64,000 nucleotides of DNA from Burkholderiales bacterium (GCA_035275265.1 DATENC010000017.1:6442-70441), one strand, 5' to 3'; shown: positions 37,295 to 44,842, numbered from the stretch's first letter. The notes: generated from the sequence alone by a model not told the origin. Made by a program: numbers and translations.

Positions 37295-37930
37295 TCACCC
37301 CTTGGTTTTCGCTCTGAATTCGCAAAGATCGCGGATCAAACAGGTCGGACACGCCGGCTTCCGCGCAATGCACACGTAGCGCCCGTGCAGGATCAGCCAA
37401 TGGTGGGCATCCTTGCGGAACTCCTCCGGGACGAATTTCATCAGCTTGTTCTCGACTTCGACGACGTCTTTGCCGGGAGCGATCCCGGTCCGGTTGGCCA
37501 CGCGGAAGATATGGGTGTCCACCGCGATGGTCGGTTCGCCGAACGCGGTATTGAGGATCACGTTCGCGGTTTTCCGGCCCACTCCCGGCAGGCTCTCCAG
37601 GTTCTCGCGCCGCCGCGGCACTTCGCCGCCGAACCGTTCCAAAAGGTTGGCGCAAGCGGCGAGAATGTTCCTCGCCTTGGTCCGGTACAACCCGATGCTA
37701 CGAATGAAAGGCGTGAGCCCGGATTCGCCGAGCGCCAGGATCGCCTGCGGCGTGTTCGCGACCGGAAAAAGTCTGGCGGTGGCGAGGTTCACGCTTTTGT
37801 CGGTGGCTTGGGCGGAGAGCACGACCGAAACCAGCAGTTCGAACGGCGTCTGATATGCGAGTTCGGTGGTCGGCGCGGGATTGGCCTGCCGCAGCCTGCG
37901 GAAGATTTCTGCTCTTTTCGTGGGATTCAT
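37295..37930 (-). CDS. nth: Endonuclease III
   Basis: LSAQATD, LPGVGRKTANV, VDTH, C-x6-C-x2-C-x5-C. Confidence 0.97.
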   Translation of the reverse strand: MNPTKRAEIFRRLRQANPAPTTELAYQTPFELLVSVVLSAQATDKSVNLATARLFPVANTPQAILALGESGLTPFIRSIGLYRTKARNILAACANLLERFGGEVPRRRENLESLPGVGRKTANVILNTAFGEPTIAVDTHIFRVANRTGIAPGKDVVEVENKLMKFVPEEFRKDAHHWLILHGRYVCIARKPACPTCLIRDLCEFRAKTKG

Positions 37931-37995
37931 ACTGAAGACAATTTGCCCGAGGAACTGGCGCACACAGTGAATTTCATTTCACATGCGTCTTGTCC

Positions 37996-38670
37996 TTAGC
38001 CTCGGCCGGCGAGGCGCGCGCGGGCGCGTTCAATGGCGGCGCGCACCGCAGCTTTCTTGCGATCCAGATCATGGCCGGCCGTCAGCAGTTCCAGGCGCGC
38101 AAGGTTGGCCCCGGCTTTCCGTGCCCGCTTGTGCTCGCGCTCGTTCGCCTGGGTTTCGAGTCGAAGCTGATGAAATTGGTAACGCTTCCGGGCAATGGTC
38201 GCAGTGTCCTCGACGCTCCGGCCGGCCAGCGCGGCTGCGTGCCGATTGCCGCGCCCGGCGAGCGCCCCCAGCCCGACAATCTCGATGCAGTCGACCGGGC
38301 AGGGTGGAACGCACAAATCGCAACCGGTGCAGAACTCGGTCAGCACGGTGTGCATTTGCTTGGAACTGCCGACGATCGCGTCCACGGGACAGGCGTGGAT
38401 GCAAAGCGTGCAACCGATGCAGCGCGATTCGTCTATCAGCGCCGCCATACGCGGTTGCTCGATTCCGTACGCGGGATTGAGCTCTTTCTGTTCGCGTCCG
38501 AGCAAATGCGCAAGCTTGCGTATGCCCACGGACCCGCCAGGAGGACACTGGTTGATCTCGGCGTCGCCTTGCGCAATCGCCTCGGCGTAGGGGCGGCAAC
38601 CCTGATAGCCGCACTTTGTGCACTGGGTCTGCGGAAGCTGCGCGTCGATCGCGTCGGCGAGACTGGCCAT
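37996..38670 (-). CDS. rnfB: Stand-alone RnfB/RsxB-like polyferredoxin (no rnf partners in window)
   Basis: [14 protein letters not shown]...[40 protein letters not shown]. Confidence 0.8.
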
Positions 38671-38691
38671 GGTGCCCAATGCTATACCCGG

Positions 38692-41600
38692 TTAGCGCGT
38701 CGGCCGGCGGCCAAGGTGAACCAGGCAGCGGTCGATCCAGTGGGCGGAGAGCTTTTCCTGCACGGAGTTCTGGGCGAGCCGTGCTGACAGTCCCGGAAAA
38801 TCCACCTTGTCGAGCGGCTGATCCTGGTTGAAGCAGGAGAACACGTAAGTACGCTCGCCGCTGGCCGGATCCACATGCGGCTGCAGGCACTGGGCGCAGA
38901 TCTCCTTCATCATGCACTGCATCGGCGAATTGACCGAACCGATCGCGAAGTGGTGAGGATCGAGATGCGCCGCAAGCACGTCGTGCCGCGCTGCAGCCAC
39001 TGCCGCCATCATCCGGTCGGACCCGATGGCGATGATGCGATTCGCAGCTTGAAACGCGATCGCCTGCGAGCCGAGATCACCTTGCGCATATGCAGCCATC
39101 GCCTGCACGATGTTGCCCACGAAGGTGCGGTCGTCCGCCCGATTCGGCCGAAATCCCGGCGCTTCGTCGCAGCACCACACCACCACGTCGGAGGCCGCTT
39201 CAATGTCCGCGATCTTGTAGCGATCGATCAATTTCTTGTAACCCGCAAAGTACAGAACCCTTGACCCGGCTGCGCGCAATGCCTGGCCGATCGAGAACAG
39301 CACGGCATTGCCGAGACCACCGCCGACAAGCACCACGGTTTCGTCCGCATGAATTTCGGTTGGTGAGCCGGTCGGCCCCATCAGGATCACCGGCTCGCCG
39401 GGCTTGAGAAGAGCGCACAGATCGGACGAGCCGCCCATCTCCAGGACGATGGTGGATACCAACCCCCTGTCGCGATCCACCCAGGCGCCGGTGAGCGCCA
39501 GGCCTTCCATTGCCAGACGGGTGCCATCCACATGCTGCGCCAGGGTTTCGAAATTCTGCAGGCGATAGAACTGGCCAGGCCGGAATTTCTTCGCGGCCAT
39601 CGGCGCGCGCACCACCACTTCGACGATGGTGGGCGTAAGCCGGATCACCTCGTGCACCGACGCGCGCAAATCGCTGTTGAGCGCAGCGAGGAAATCAGCG
39701 TCGGTTCCGGCAAAGGCTGGACGCACTTTTTCCAGAACGCGGCTGACCACCGGGTAGCCCTGCTTGGCGCCGCCCATGGCTTTGACCACGTTGCCGAAGA
39801 AGGAAGGGTGCAGGTCGCCGAAGAAGCTGACGAACCGGCCATCCGGACGCTTCGACAGCAGCACCTGCGGGGAATCCGGCTTGGCGCTTTTCTCGGGATG
39901 CACCTGCATGCCGTTCTCGTCGCAAGCCTGAAAGTAACGGCCGTCGAGATGGAAGTTGTGCGCGTCCTCGCGTGCCAGCACCGTGTTCGGCTGCGTGCCC
40001 GCCGCAACCAGCACCGTGCGCGCCGGCAGCGTTAGCGTCGCGGTTTCGGTGCCGCCGTTCGCGAGCACGCGCTTGCTGGTGACGGTAAGCCCCATGGCAT
40101 AGCCGAGTTCGTCCACTTCGACTGCAACGGGTGTCAGGTTTTCCGCGAAGCGGATGCCTTCCTCGAGCGCTTTCTCGACTTCCTCGTGGTTGAGAACATA
40201 CGAAGGGCTGTCGATCAGACGCTTGCGATAGGCGATGGTGACCCCGCCCCAGGATTGGAGCAATTCAAGCACATGCGGCTCGCGGCCTTGCGCTGCGGCC
40301 TCCGTGCGTTCGCCGCGAATTGCGCGTGCGTGTGTCAGATACTCTTCGGCGACGCTGCGCTCCGCGGCAGTCCATGAAGCGCGAACCTTTTCCTCGCCTC
40401 GTTCGGCGCACAGCGTCTCGAAGCGGCGCAGGAATTTCTCCACCTGCAACGGATAATAAGCAGCCGATTCGGTCGCCGTGTCGATCGCAGTGAGGCCGCC
40501 GCCGATCACCACCACCGGCAAACGCAGCTGCATGTTGGCGATCGAATTCTGCTTGGCTGCCCCGGTGAGTTGCAGCGCCATGAGGAAGTCGGAAGCTGTG
40601 CGCACCCCCGGCGCCAGGCCGTTGGGGATGTCGAGCACGGTGGGGCGCCCCGCACCTGCGGCCAGCACCACGTGATCGAACCCGAAATCAAAGGCGTCGT
40701 CGACCGAAAGTGTGCCGCCAAAACGCACTCCCCCGAACAACGCGAATTCCCGCCGCCGTTGCAGCAAAAGCCGGATGAGCTTGAGGAAATTCTTGTCCCA
40801 ACGCACCGTGATGCCATATTCGGCCACGCCTCCGAAACCGGCCATGACGCGATCGTCCAGCGATTCGAACAGCGATTCGGAATCGTAAATCGGTTCGAAC
40901 GCGACCCGTGCCCCCGAGCGATCCACCCCGCACTGTTGCGCAGGCAGTGGCTCGATCTTAAGACCATCAATGCCGACCACGCTGTGACCATCGTTCATCA
41001 GGTGGTGTGCCACGGTGAATCCGGCCGGCCCCATGCCGGCGACCAGCACGCGACGGCCGCTTGCGGGCCGGGGCAACGGTCGGCGCAAATCGAGAGGATT
41101 CCAGCGCGTGAGCAGGCTGTAGATTTCGAATCCCCAGGGTAGTTCCAGCACGTCCTTCAGCGTGCGAGTCTCCGCCTGCGGAATGTTGACCGGCTCCTGC
41201 TTCTGGTAGATGCAGGATTTCATGCAGTCGTTGCAGATGCGGTGCCCCGTGGCGGCGACCATCGGGTTGTCCACCGTTATCATTGCCAGCGCGCCGACCG
41301 CGATGCCTTGGGTCTTGAGCATCTGAAACTCGGAGATGCGCTCTTCCAACGGACAGCCTGCCAGAGGCACGCCGAAAACGGTTTTCTTGAACGGCGCAGC
41401 ACCGCCGTCCGCCGGAGCCTTCTCCTTCAGCCCGTGCGAACAGGAGTCGCGCGCCTGCTCGTGGCACCAGATGCAATAGTTGGTCTGATCGAGCGCACCG
41501 ACAAGATCGGTGCCGGAATCGGTGAGCGCGAAACCGTGGCGGCGGCGCAGGTGGGAAAGCGTGTGAACCGTGACGCCGTTTACTTCACGCGTCTCGAGCG

Positions 41601-42225
41601 GTACCAGATTCTGAAAGTCGAGTTTTTTTGGCGCCTTGAACAGCACCCCGGCCTGGTGTTTCCTTTGTCCCGCAGGCGTATGCGCCGCCCATGCGGCGTA
41701 GCGCATAGCGGTATCGAGTTTCCCGGTGTTGGCGGCCTCGTCTTTCTGCCATTCGGCAACGTACCGGGAGAATGCCAGCTCGCTGAACGCTTCGCCGAAC
41801 AATAGCGTTAGCTTCCGCGCAAGTTCATCGCCGTCGAACCCGGCGGCGATGTCGGATCTGTATGTGTTCATCGATTTGCGCTGGACGAACAGGCGCTTGC
41901 AGGAGAACAGCGGCGCAAGTTCGTGGTGACGAGCGGAAAGCGCCCGCACCTCGGCCTCGATGCTGAACAGTTGCGCAACGAAATCGTCCAGATGTTCGGC
42001 CACCGCTATCAGCAAATCCGATTCGTCCTTGCGCGCGAGAAGCTCCGGGTCGACCCGGGCGGATTCAAGACGAGCCCGCAGTGCGGCGTCCGCGTTCCCA
42101 AGGAAAACGAGGAAAGCGGCATCGAGCCGCTGCAATCCGGCGAGATCGTAGAGATCTTCGAAACGGCTACCGAAGCCGAGCTTCAGTTCAGGCTGGGTGA
42201 AAACTGCGTCTACGCTGATATTCAT
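38692..42225 (-). CDS. Fused Fe-S flavoprotein: GltD/NfnB-like N-terminal part plus PyrK/NfnA-like FNR C-terminal part
   Basis: CIWCH...SC...GCPL, GHRICNDCMKSC, GMGPAG, GGGLTAIDTA; then MGPTG, GGGLG, SPMQCMMKEICAQC...FSCF. Confidence 0.8.
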   Translation of the reverse strand: MNISVDAVFTQPELKLGFGSRFEDLYDLAGLQRLDAAFLVFLGNADAALRARLESARVDPELLARKDESDLLIAVAEHLDDFVAQLFSIEAEVRALSARHHELAPLFSCKRLFVQRKSMNTYRSDIAAGFDGDELARKLTLLFGEAFSELAFSRYVAEWQKDEAANTGKLDTAMRYAAWAAHTPAGQRKHQAGVLFKAPKKLDFQNLVPLETREVNGVTVHTLSHLRRRHGFALTDSGTDLVGALDQTNYCIWCHEQARDSCSHGLKEKAPADGGAAPFKKTVFGVPLAGCPLEERISEFQMLKTQGIAVGALAMITVDNPMVAATGHRICNDCMKSCIYQKQEPVNIPQAETRTLKDVLELPWGFEIYSLLTRWNPLDLRRPLPRPASGRRVLVAGMGPAGFTVAHHLMNDGHSVVGIDGLKIEPLPAQQCGVDRSGARVAFEPIYDSESLFESLDDRVMAGFGGVAEYGITVRWDKNFLKLIRLLLQRRREFALFGGVRFGGTLSVDDAFDFGFDHVVLAAGAGRPTVLDIPNGLAPGVRTASDFLMALQLTGAAKQNSIANMQLRLPVVVIGGGLTAIDTATESAAYYPLQVEKFLRRFETLCAERGEEKVRASWTAAERSVAEEYLTHARAIRGERTEAAAQGREPHVLELLQSWGGVTIAYRKRLIDSPSYVLNHEEVEKALEEGIRFAENLTPVAVEVDELGYAMGLTVTSKRVLANGGTETATLTLPARTVLVAAGTQPNTVLAREDAHNFHLDGRYFQACDENGMQVHPEKSAKPDSPQVLLSKRPDGRFVSFFGDLHPSFFGNVVKAMGGAKQGYPVVSRVLEKVRPAFAGTDADFLAALNSDLRASVHEVIRLTPTIVEVVVRAPMAAKKFRPGQFYRLQNFETLAQHVDGTRLAMEGLALTGAWVDRDRGLVSTIVLEMGGSSDLCALLKPGEPVILMGPTGSPTEIHADETVVLVGGGLGNAVLFSIGQALRAAGSRVLYFAGYKKLIDRYKIADIEAASDVVVWCCDEAPGFRPNRADDRTFVGNIVQAMAAYAQGDLGSQAIAFQAANRIIAIGSDRMMAAVAAARHDVLAAHLDPHHFAIGSVNSPMQCMMKEICAQCLQPHVDPASGERTYVFSCFNQDQPLDKVDFPGLSARLAQNSVQEKLSAHWIDRCLVHLGRRPTR

Positions 42226-42314
42226 TCAGAGATTCTGGGGACCTGGAGCGGCACCGATAAAAGCGCGCATTATAACGCCGGCGGTTCGAAATCTTATTCG
42301 AACTGACGCTGAAG

Positions 42315-43346
42315 TTATAACGGATTCATGGCCTTAAGCGCGAGATCCGCGACGATCCTGCGCGCCAATCCCGGGCCTTCGTAGATCAGGCCACTGTAGA
42401 GCTGGAGCAGGCTGGCGCCGGCGTTGAGTTTTTCGCGGGCGTCGGTTGCGGAAAACACGCCGCCCGCCGCGATGATCGGGATGCGGTCGTCCAATGATCT
42501 TGCCAGTTCGCGCAAGACTGCGGTCGAGCGAGCTTTCAGCGGCGCGCCGCTCAATCCACCCGCCTGCTCGCTGTTCGCCATGCCTTCGACGCCATCGCGG
42601 GAGAGGGTAGTGTTGGTGGCGATCACCGCGTCCACCCCGTGCCTGACAAACGTGGTGCACATGTGTCCAATTTCCTCGGCTGTCAGGTCGGGTGCCATTT
42701 TGACTGCGAGCGGAACCGTCTTGCCGTGCCGGGCCGCGAGTTTGCGGTTCTCCTCGGTCAGGATGCCCAGCAACCGTTCGAGTTGTTCGGACTGTTGCAG
42801 CTGGCGCAGGTTGACGGTATTTGGCGAGGAGATATTGATCGCGACATAGCTTGCGGCCACATGCACTTTGCGCAGGCAGTACAGGTAATCCTCTGCAGCG
42901 CGCTCGATGGGCGTGTCGAAATTCTTGCCGATGTTGATCCCGAGAATGCCGCGATAGCGCGCCCGTGCGACGTTGTCGAGCAGCCGTTCGACGCCATCGT
43001 TATTGAACCCCATGCGGTTGACGATGGCACGAGCCTCAGGGATGCGGAACAGGCGCGGAGCCGGGTTGCCGGGTTGCGGGCGCGGGGTCACGGTTCCGAC
43101 CTCGATGAATCCGAAACCGAGCGCCGCCAGCGAGTCGATGTGTTCGCCGTTCTTGTCCAGTCCTGCCGCCAGTCCCACGGGATTTGGAAACTCAAGCCCC
43201 ATAACGCGGCGCGGAGACTGAACCGTGGCGCCGGTCGCGCGCGTGAATCCTAAGCGGTGGGCAAGATCGAGGAATCGCAGCGCGCCTTGGTGCGAACGCT
43301 CGGGTTCGAGTTGGAACAGGAACGGGCGCGCCAGGCGATAGAGCAT
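42315..43346 (-). CDS. pyrD: Quinone-dependent dihydroorotate dehydrogenase (class 2)
   Basis: NPVGLAAGLDKN, GTVTPRPQPGN, NRMGFNN, NISSPNT, GGLSG. Confidence 0.97.
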   Translation of the reverse strand: MLYRLARPFLFQLEPERSHQGALRFLDLAHRLGFTRATGATVQSPRRVMGLEFPNPVGLAAGLDKNGEHIDSLAALGFGFIEVGTVTPRPQPGNPAPRLFRIPEARAIVNRMGFNNDGVERLLDNVARARYRGILGINIGKNFDTPIERAAEDYLYCLRKVHVAASYVAINISSPNTVNLRQLQQSEQLERLLGILTEENRKLAARHGKTVPLAVKMAPDLTAEEIGHMCTTFVRHGVDAVIATNTTLSRDGVEGMANSEQAGGLSGAPLKARSTAVLRELARSLDDRIPIIAAGGVFSATDAREKLNAGASLLQLYSGLIYEGPGLARRIVADLALKAMNPL

Positions 43347-43397
43347 GTCAGAGGGCGGCGGCAATTTCGCCGCCGTCCATGACCTGGCGTGCCGGGA

Positions 43398-44147
43398 TCA
43401 CACGGCCTCGGGAGAGGACGCGTCGCGCGGCAGTCGCCGCCATTGGCCGTCGATCAGTCCCTCCAGCGGCTGAAAGTTGATCTTGTAGGCCATCTTGCGG
43501 CTTTGCGCTATCCAGTAGCCCAGATATAGATAGGGAAGTCCCAGCCGCCGGCACAACTCCACCTGCCAAACCACGTTGAAAGTGCCAAGGCTGGCGCCAG
43601 CGACTTCGGGTTCGAAAAATGTGTACACCGAAGACAGGCCGTCTTCGAGCCGATCGACAATGCTGACCATGCGCAGGCGCCCGTCCTCGCGAAACTCCAC
43701 AAGGCTCGAGCGGACGTTGCTCTGCAGGAGGAAATGGCGGTACTGCTCGCGACTGTCGTGATCCATGCCGCCACCGCTATGACGGTGCGACTGGTAACGC
43801 AGGTACAGCGCATAGTGCTCGGGGTGATACTTGAGTTCCAGCATGCGCGCTTCCAGCGCGTTGTGACGGGAGTGGGCTCGACGGTGCGAGCGGCTGGGCT
43901 CGAAACCGGCGGTAACGATGCGCACCGGCACGCAGGCGCGGCAGTGATCACAATAAGGCCGATAGGTGAACGCGCCGCTGCGACGGAAGCCGACTTTCAC
44001 CAACTCGCTGTAGACCTGGTTGTCGATTGCATGGCTGGGTGTGGCCACCTGCGAGCGGGCCAGCTTGTCGGGTAGGTAGCTGCACGGGTAGGGCGCAGTT
44101 GCGTAGAACTGCAGCACCGAAAAGGGCAGGTCGTTGAGCTGTGTCAT
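43398..44147 (-). CDS. bpt: Bacterial protein transferase Bpt (Asp/Glu leucyltransferase; ATE-like)
   Basis: [45 protein letters not shown]. Confidence 0.9.
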
Positions 44148-44842
44148 CGCGCGATCGTGGGTTCCAGGCGCCAAGGTGCCGGAACCGGGTCATAGTGTAC
44201 CAATTCCCGCAGCCTGCGCGTGAACTCGGCGCGCGGGATTTCCCGGGCGCCGAAAGAAGCGAGGTGGGCGGTGTTCATCTGGCAGTCGACGACGCCGAAT
44301 CCCCAGCGCTCCAGTTGCCGGGCCAATGCCACAAGCGCGACTTTCGAGGCGTCGCTGACACGGGTGAACATGGACTCGCCGAAGAACGCGCGGCCGAGCG
44401 CCACGCCGTACAGGCCGCCCACGAGTTCGCCGTCGCGCCAGGTTTCCACCGAATGCGCGTACCCCGCGCGATGAAGGGCGCTGTAGGCGTCGGCCATCTC
44501 TTCCGTGATCCAAGTGCCGGATTCCTCGCGCCGGGGCTGACGGCACCCTTCGATCACTTCGCCGAAAGCGGTATCGGCCCGCACTTCGAAGCGCATGTTG
44601 CGCATTGCGCGTGCCAGCGAGCGCGAAACCTTCAACTCGGCGGGGAACAGGACCATGCGTGGATCGGGGCTCCACCAGAGGATCGGCTGCTCACGGGAGA
44701 ACCAGGGGAAGATGCCGTTACGGTAGGCTTCAAGGAGCCTGGGTAGCGACAGATCGGCGCCTGCAGCGAGCAGACCGTTCGGTTCCGCGAGTGCGCGCTC
44801 AACGTCGGGAAAGTGATCGCCGGAGCCCAGCCAGGGAATCAA
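44144..44842 (-). CDS. aat: Leucyl/phenylalanyl-tRNA--protein transferase
   Basis: [41 protein letters not shown]. Confidence 0.96.

Follow-up and report, generated by a model that had tools for sequence, protein, structure and literature searches.

We analysed a 64,000-nt stretch of DNA from a Burkholderiales bacterium (GCA_035275265.1 DATENC010000017.1:6442-70441; hereafter the window), in which a gene for a flavoprotein of 1177 amino acids (aa) lies between pyrD and a gene for an RnfB-like ferredoxin. Coordinates are counted from the first letter of the window, and the genes from ate to nth all lie on the minus strand:

43398-44174, minus strand: ate, arginyl/leucyl-tRNA protein transferase, first gene of an ate-pyrD-rnfB-nth block (NF002341, 395.8 bits; synteny)
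42315-43364, minus strand: pyrD, quinone-dependent class 2 dihydroorotate dehydrogenase (NF003646, 517.5 bits, cut-off 457)
38692-42225, minus strand: the 1177-aa flavoprotein of the RP005/PRK06567 family, with fused NfnB-like and NfnA-like modules (open reading frame (ORF), NF005128, AlphaFold2 model, Foldseek)
37996-38679, minus strand: RnfB-like polyferredoxin, predicted to be soluble, with an FeS domain and 2x[4Fe-4S] (PF04060, Fer4_21, TIGR01944, NF005415)
37295-37963, minus strand: nth, endonuclease III (TIGR01083, 282 bits)

On translation, the flavoprotein ORF is open throughout, without internal stops. It ends 21 nt before the probable ATG start of the RnfB-like gene at 38670 (12 nt before an alternative TTG at 38679) and begins 89 nt after the pyrD stop at 42315, both distances being those given by an initial annotation of this locus. 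A search for a terminator-like site on the minus strand from pyrD to nth returned none, and neither did a promoter scan of the region for a sigma-70-like site. The chain of the flavoprotein divides as follows:

41506-42198, minus strand: RP005_N helical domain, residues ~10-240 (PF27156 on close homologues; Atlas name; an all-helical model with a beta-hairpin)
41146-41493, minus strand: two-[4Fe-4S] domain, C251, C254, C262, C291 and C331, C334, C338 with E352 (weak Fer4_20; invariance; alignment to NfnI-L and Xfn)
39721-41073, minus strand: flavin adenine dinucleotide (FAD) and NADPH Rossmann domains, residues ~385-835 (Pyr_redox_2, E 4.9e-15; alignments to 5jca_L and 5vj7_A; invariance; model)
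38695-39663, minus strand: PyrK/NfnA-like FAD/NAD module with a four-Cys [2Fe-2S] site, C1104, C1110, C1113, C1131 (phmmer, Foldseek, invariance)

Pfam reports Pyr_redox_2 and a weak Fer4_20 on this protein. The motifs on which the initial annotation was built were all found in the translation, namely the Fe-S motifs CIWCH...C...GCPL, GHRICNDCMKSC and the C-terminal CMMKEICAQC...C, and the Rossmann motifs VLVAGMGPAG and VVVIGGGLTA; a third dinucleotide fold, VVLVGGGLGNA, lies in the C-terminal module. In an alignment of 29 homologues, reaching down to 33% identity, C251/C254/C262/C291, C331/C334/C338 and E352 are invariant, as are R475, Y666, R667 and C1104/C1110/C1113/C1131. Since all eleven Cys and E352 are kept over this range, the Cys motifs are not a matter of chance.

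For both halves of the protein, the top sequence matches in the Protein Data Bank are Nfn subunits, with Xfn (5vj7_A) at an E-value of 1.2e-11 and also 5jca_L. In HMMER alignments to the solved structures, C331/C334/C338 and E352 fall on the RVC...QC...C...ER stretch of Pyrococcus furiosus NfnI-L and of Xfn, R475 falls on the Arg of IPEFRLP in NfnI-L (5jca_L), and Y666-R667-x-R669 matches the YRR 2'-phosphate site of Nfn (5jca_L/5vj7_A). By phmmer, the C-terminal 320 residues align with Thermotoga maritima NfnA (4ylf_A, E 1.8e-13) and with NfnI-S (5jca_S, E 7.2e-11). An AlphaFold2 model of the whole chain (predicted local distance difference test, pLDDT, 89.8; predicted template-modelling score, pTM, 0.90) gave the following Foldseek matches, scored by template-modelling (TM) score on the target:

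NfnI-L, 5jfc_L: TM 0.81
Xfn, 5vj7_A: TM 0.79
T. maritima NfnB, 4ylf_B: TM 0.78
NfnI-S, 5jca_S: TM 0.87, rmsd 3.3
T. maritima NfnA, 4ylf_A: TM 0.82
GltD, 6s6s_E: TM 0.72

TM scores of 0.78-0.81 and invariant ligands thus indicate an NfnB/GltD-like module that carries FAD, two [4Fe-4S] clusters and a site for NADPH, and the matches to 4ylf_A and 5jca_S (TM 0.82-0.87) indicate a PyrK/NfnA-like module that binds FAD and NAD(H). The comparison with T. maritima and P. furiosus Nfn that the initial annotation had proposed therefore bears out its view of a fused chain: because Nfn subunits are the best matches of both halves by sequence alignment and by fold (TM 0.78-0.87 to the model), the flavoprotein is correctly described as a predicted single-chain NfnB-NfnA-like protein. 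The likeness to NfnAB takes in both module types, a predicted cofactor set of two FAD, two [4Fe-4S] and one [2Fe-2S], the flavin-N5 Arg, the Gx2ER Glu and an NADPH site of YRR type. At the same time, the window protein differs from NfnAB in that the B and A parts are joined, in this order, in one chain, which also has an RP005_N domain of 240 aa and a helical insert of 80 aa (residues 578-660 within the Rossmann region, from the secondary structure of the model); its sequence identity to NfnAB is only ~19-23%, and the hosts of its family are mostly aerobes.

The Arg hydrogen-bonded to flavin N5 in Nfn, which had been singled out for inspection at the presumed bifurcating FAD, corresponds here to R475, aligned with the Arg of IPEFRLP, invariant in the 29 sequences and equated with Arg187 of T. 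maritima NfnB by way of numbering offsets. The same Arg is, however, present in the non-bifurcating dihydropyrimidine dehydrogenase (DPD), so that it is necessary but not sufficient, and R475 constitutes no proof of bifurcation. Xfn, in turn, has the Nfn architecture yet no NAD+-dependent activity (PMC6405883). For these two reasons bifurcation by the window protein is no more than a possibility.

Folded alone, RP005_N again gave a helical model. No clear relative was found for it among solved folds; the best match, to sigma-factor region 4 over 66 residues, has a Z of 5.7, below the tool's stated noise for helical models, and the domain was left unassigned. Its name is taken from RP005 of Rickettsia prowazekii.

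Among the NCBIfam models, the best match is NF005128 (PRK06567), with 770.2 bits in three stretches, the best of which covers residues 14-721. As this lies below the equivalog cut-off of 1072, the flavoprotein scores as a homologue of NF005128 rather than as an equivalog. It has the RP005/PRK06567 architecture, a single chain in which RP005_N precedes the GltD-like and the PyrK-like module; homologues 72-98% identical to it carry a precomputed PF27156 annotation, and an Atlas search names the domain RP005_N. The whole of this architecture, RP005_N included, is shared with the Rickettsiales form, and the copy from a 1.1-Mb genome (L015), which the full-length family alignment takes in, has every invariant ligand; the window protein is ~145 aa longer than the 1031-position NF005128 model and 33-37% identical. 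The Rickettsiales form is itself uncharacterised (PMC3641634, PMC4251998).

The window gene is thus a member of a large catalogued family (PF27156 RP005_N, NF005128) of mostly aerobic bacteria, and it is the family, not this particular locus, that is of interest. We obtained at least 8000 word-sharing matches to the flavoprotein and, at E < 1e-30, 1275 clusters at 50% identity, the majority full length; in Pseudomonadota, 33 of 301 sampled genomes carry the family. Carriers include Nitrosomonas, Nitrosovibrio tenuis, Gallionella, Casimicrobiaceae, Rhodocyclaceae, Stellaceae, Reyranella and Rickettsiales, and further Bryobacteraceae/Terriglobia (Acidobacteriota), Paludisphaera (Planctomycetota) and Nevskia, with 61-75% identity between family members of these phyla.

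A fused B-then-A order is known as 'Pattern C' in a review of Nfn homologues, where it is reported from Actinobacteria and Alpha- and Gammaproteobacteria (PMC6405883). These proteins (PRK12779/PRK12775) share that order and a C-terminal PyrK-like part with the window protein and are likewise uncharacterised. The window protein, which has its own N-domain, scores only 76-84 bits on their models against cut-offs of 1519-1895, and for this reason belongs to a separate, more divergent family.

The label under which the family circulates is another matter. PRK06567 has been described as a 'GltD-UbiB chimera' that almost all Rickettsiales genomes carry (PMC3641634), and in Ehrlichia it has been taken as a glutamate-forming enzyme (PMC4251998); our literature search found no paper on RP005 as a protein, and mentions of PRK06567 at annotation level only. 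The flavoprotein fails both GltD models, TIGR01317 and TIGR01318 (48.5 and 45.3 bits, cut-offs 447.7 and 483), and since GltD-type models overall give scores of 45-86 bits where cut-offs of 448-483 apply, the protein is misnamed as a glutamate synthase, as the initial annotation had suspected of such proteins. This corrects the name 'glutamate synthase/2-polyprenylphenol hydroxylase', from which glutamine metabolism has already been inferred in Ehrlichia (PMC4251998).

The same scores bear on the idea that the flavoprotein might be a reductase component for a catalytic partner encoded elsewhere, with a GltD- or PreT-like role in a glutamate synthase, a dihydropyrimidine dehydrogenase or a selenate/sulfide-type enzyme. 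Members of the GltD superfamily commonly serve as electron-input subunits, and there are weak matches to YgfK-, AegA- and PreT-type models. These amount, however, to 18-86 bits against cut-offs of 343-1003 (gltA of the NfnB type, PreT, AegA and YgfK all stay far under their cut-offs), and the pairing of a GltD-like with a PyrK-like module occurs only in Nfn-type enzymes. Moreover, no conserved catalytic neighbour emerged from a survey in which all flanking ORFs of 100 homology-fetched loci were clustered, and the longer homologues yielded no informative Rosetta-stone fusion, only one probable gene-call merge, and the longer representatives carry no additional Pfam domain. We therefore consider such a role very unlikely.

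The downstream neighbour has an RnfB core, with 207.4 bits on TIGR01944 (rnfB; cut-off 68.7) and 280.8 bits on NF005415 (cut-off 281). It matches only profile positions 34-163, and because positions 1-33 are unmatched, the N-terminal membrane anchor is missing and the protein is predicted to be soluble. It shares the FeS domain, the 2x[4Fe-4S] core and the neighbouring nth with RnfB/RsxB of the Rnf complex, as in the E. coli rsx-nth operon, and differs from it in the absence of the anchor, in a genome without rnfD and in an added basic C-terminal tail. The initial annotation had regarded it as an orphan RnfB, which holds as far as its solubility and the lack of rnfD in the 98.95%-complete genome are concerned, rnfA, C, E and G not having been searched separately. 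The tail (90 residues, ~136-227; window 37996-38270) is rich in Ala, Arg and Lys; it is matched within the genus, and the matches of several remoter relatives end at about residue 140. As the RnfB-like gene is conserved together with that of endonuclease III, a nucleic-acid- or protein-docking role of the tail is conceivable.

Of the 24 genomes of the genus, at least 21 have the RnfB-like gene directly downstream of the flavoprotein gene. G327 and G333, from two other families, share this arrangement, and in four other carriers of the order the two genes are not side by side. Among the 100 homology-fetched loci the pairing is found only in the four closest relatives, L021, L026, L028 and L083, to which L116 and L117 can be added, and on a FastTree phylogeny of 97 family members the RnfB-linked flavoproteins form one clade (99% support). 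Relatives that lack the flavoprotein carry ate-pyrD-rnfB-nth (L108, L109, L110; partly L111, L112), and rnfB and nth are adjacent also in L106, L114 and L115 and ~5.8 kb apart in L107; in all, nth adjoins the RnfB-like gene in 8 of 12 relatives' loci examined. The simplest reading of these gene orders is that the flavoprotein gene was inserted once, in one clade, between pyrD and an older rnfB-nth pair, because relatives have the block without it. By the same comparison nth stands as the ancestral partner of the RnfB-like gene, and the pyrD flank is synteny only, despite the PyrK-like module. An operon conserved with RnfB, pyrD or nth can thus be dismissed as a trait of the family, the arrangement being confined to one clade and the block existing without the gene. 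We found no evidence linking the flavoprotein to Nth, which the initial annotation had proposed as a client.

Two further observations concern this block. The block ate-pyrD-rnfB-like-nth is conserved in relatives of the same taxonomic order (L106-L115), even in genomes without Rnf-like context, and in L115, L106 and L114 the RnfB-like gene has fdxA beside it or close by.

Elsewhere in the family, other neighbours appear. In 11 of the 100 loci, cysH-cysD-cysN (or cysNC) lie upstream of the flavoprotein gene on the same strand, and in 8 of these 11 a NIR_SIR sulfite reductase lies farther upstream. On the tree the cys-linked loci represent two or more distinct clades, among them the Nitrosomonadaceae and an alphaproteobacterial group that includes one Rickettsiales metagenome-assembled genome (MAG), the gap from cysNC to the gene being -1 to 3 nt in the latter. 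In 5 other loci the gene immediately upstream, in the same orientation, is that of a proteobacterial FdxA, an arrangement for which the tree indicates two origins. Counting rnfB-like once and fdxA twice, a ferredoxin gene has come to neighbour the flavoprotein gene in at least three independent events, which makes a ferredoxin partner plausible.

The genome of the window has its own sulfate operon on another contig (contig C20:142068-150528 of G000, in L105:2068-10528), with tauE, cysI, cysH, cysD, cysN, fdxA, cobA/SUMT and a sulfate-binding protein in this order, and with a divergent CysB-like LysR regulator. Its CysI is closest to the ferredoxin type (215.8 bits on NirA models vs 116 bits on the NADPH-CysI model), and its FdxA, a 7Fe ferredoxin, scores above its equivalog cut-off. 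No cysJ was found when the CysJ profile was scored genome-wide; the best TIGR01931 match, 88.8 bits against a cut-off of 668, is on another contig, at a different locus. Nor did we find in this genome a stand-alone Fpr-type ferredoxin-NADP+ reductase (FNR), its only two FNR-type modules being three-domain oxygenase-reductase-like proteins. Since the adjacencies cysN-flavoprotein gene, cysN-fdxA and fdxA-flavoprotein gene all occur, the gene orders fit an electron path from NAD(P)H by way of the flavoprotein and ferredoxin to sulfite reductase.

With respect to position, the arrangement resembles that of the Corynebacterium glutamicum Fpr2-CysX-CysI system (fpr2-cysIXHDNYZ, PMC1266029) and of E. 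coli CysJ, in that a flavoprotein gene occupies an analogous place in a cysIHDN operon at 11 loci and its product presumably feeds a siroheme sulfite reductase; it differs in that the flavoprotein families are unrelated and that the link to CysI consists here of gene order only. In bacteria that lack CysJ, the electron donor to CysI is still in question, and fitness screens have so far pointed only to the small accessory proteins DUF2849 and DUF934 (Price et al., bioRxiv 10.1101/072470). The flavoprotein would be a concrete candidate for this supplier in many CysJ-less proteobacteria.

One could also imagine a more direct arrangement, in which the flavoprotein acts as a CysJ-like reductase that docks on the siroheme sulfite reductase, perhaps through RP005_N, and delivers electrons through its own [4Fe-4S] pair without a free ferredoxin, much as GltD does to GltB. 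The N-terminal Fe-S pairs of GltD, DPD and NfnB are internal wires to a partner, which would suit such a scheme. At the cys loci of the Nitrosomonadaceae and of the alphaproteobacterial group, the gene comes after cysN and no fdxA was matched, and it takes the slot that fdxA holds in the cys operon of the window's own genome. That operon, on the other hand, is on a different contig and has its own FdxA, and at least two carriers, G023 and G208 (the latter a 1.1-Mb genome), have no NIR_SIR protein at all. Rickettsiales are not known to assimilate sulfate. Nearly all of them nevertheless retain the family (PMC3641634). Taken together, these points make direct docking unlikely in our view.

In Nitrosomonadaceae, the same strand carries the order cysI-cysH-cysD-cysN-flavoprotein-pntAA-pntAB-pntB (L039:9600-12600, L096:8323-11183; also L043 and L040), the pnt genes having the domains AlaDh_PNT (pntAA), PNTB_4TM (pntAB) and PNTB (pntB). 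The gene order hints at a link between the proton-driven transhydrogenase and an NADPH/NAD(H) flavoprotein. This pyridine-nucleotide theme could also suit a flavoprotein that is itself a soluble NADH/NADPH transhydrogenase or a diaphorase, whose neighbours are accidental and which has no physiological ferredoxin partner; its two flavins, each with a dinucleotide site of its own and connected by Fe-S clusters, would permit this, and most loci indeed lack a conserved neighbour. It would leave the two [4Fe-4S] clusters, which are the route from flavin to partner in Nfn, GltD and DPD and which are invariant down to 33% identity, as well as the ferredoxin genes that became its neighbours at least three times, without explanation, and we give this possibility little credence.

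The reading we prefer, with moderate confidence and on the strength of sequence and model, is that the product of the gene is an NAD(P)H:ferredoxin oxidoreductase of NfnAB design, soluble and complete in itself. NADPH would donate electrons to the central flavin, from which the two [4Fe-4S] clusters would pass them on to a small ferredoxin, possibly the co-oriented RnfB-like protein in this clade and FdxA in general. The PyrK-like arm would join the same flavin to NAD(H), either as the high-potential branch of a bifurcation or just as a second entry point. If the protein bifurcates, the reaction would be 2 NADPH + NAD+ + 2 Fd-ox -> 2 NADP+ + NADH + 2 Fd-red, where Fd is ferredoxin. The NirA-like, ferredoxin-type assimilatory sulfite reductase of CysJ-less bacteria is a likely major client. 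More probably still, the flavoprotein is a general supplier of low-potential electrons, since the family persists in genomes without any sulfite reductase.

Several observations weigh against this oxidoreductase reading, the first of them in the protein itself. NfnA ligates its [2Fe-2S] cluster by Asp(Cys)3, in the motif DGTGMCGxCRx10CV and with a potential of +80 mV, and NfnB has the motifs RCx2Cx4Cx3CPV and GRVCPQExQCx3Cx13Gx2ER (PMC6405883). The window protein has a four-Cys site instead (QC1104MMKEIC1110AQC1113...C1131), the first ligand being an invariant Cys, and its spacings are Cx2Cx7Cx28CP and Cx2Cx3C, compared to Cx2Cx4Cx3CP and Cx5Cx3C in NfnB; the second motif reads GHRICx2Cx3Cx13E-T-R. 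The ligand count is retained, and the spacing and the PQE segment are altered. By these features the protein is not a canonical Nfn. The neighbourhoods are a second point: no universal neighbour was found across the 100 loci, most of which are without any conserved one, and a ferredoxin or cys gene of any kind is adjacent in only about one fifth. Likewise, 38 of 41 relatives have the RnfB-like gene, among them 9 without the flavoprotein, and its pairing with the flavoprotein, having a single origin, may be neutral synteny. A ferredoxin partner, which the initial annotation had seen in it, is plausible from the repeated association of ferredoxin genes with the family; the local gene order reflects an insertion in one clade. 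A third point concerns the genomic background, in that one carrier (G183) has the flavoprotein together with a true cysJI, and PF00175 (FNR-type) is missing in 6 of 33 carriers and in ~30 of 268 non-carriers, from which no clear anticorrelation emerges. Finally, a literature search for biochemical data on any family member found none.

A strict replacement of CysJ was also rejected, given the true cysJI of G183 and the lack of NIR_SIR in G023 and G208. Carriers without NIR_SIR, the cysJI carrier and the lack of a clear FNR anticorrelation together argue that the function of the flavoprotein is broader than sulfite reduction. On balance, the first reading of the locus, as given by the initial annotation, is partly supported.

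Nfn-type flavin-based bifurcation is considered characteristic of anaerobes. An enzyme of Nfn design that is conserved in aerobes of soil and water, in ammonia and iron oxidisers and in almost all Rickettsiales would carry bifurcation, or a non-bifurcating derivative of it, into aerobic metabolism. One could speculate further, in a proposal to which we attach a low probability, that in aerobes without Rnf, Fix, CysJ and Fpr it is the RP005 family that fills a gap by supplying low-potential electrons from NAD(P)H, bifurcating from NADPH to NAD+ as high-potential and an FdxA/RnfB-type ferredoxin as low-potential acceptor, and so serving ferredoxin-dependent sulfite reductase along with further Fe-S or radical enzymes. 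In a cycle with the proton-driven transhydrogenase PntAB, the proton gradient would then drive the reduction of ferredoxin by NADH, a soluble substitute for reverse Rnf.

Some minor features remain. The 89-nt gap between pyrD and the ORF contains a perfect inverted repeat, GTTCGAA-N6-TTCGAAC (window 42284-42303, minus strand). As a conserved operator it was rejected: the palindrome is absent from all 118 fetched loci, including an 89%-identical relative, and for this reason it is probably not one. A TATAAT hexamer lies 9 nt downstream of the repeat (42269-42274, minus strand). Farther afield, a fused ABC exporter (ABC_membrane and ABC_tran, ~580 aa) lies 2-4 genes away from the flavoprotein gene in 16 of the 100 loci (L005, L017, L034, L035, L045 and 11 others), and in one alphaproteobacterial MAG (L085:6820-8439) a further pyridine-nucleotide neighbour, the downstream gene of a glutamine-dependent NAD synthase (CN_hydrolase and NAD_synthase), overlaps the 3' end of the flavoprotein gene by 11 nt.

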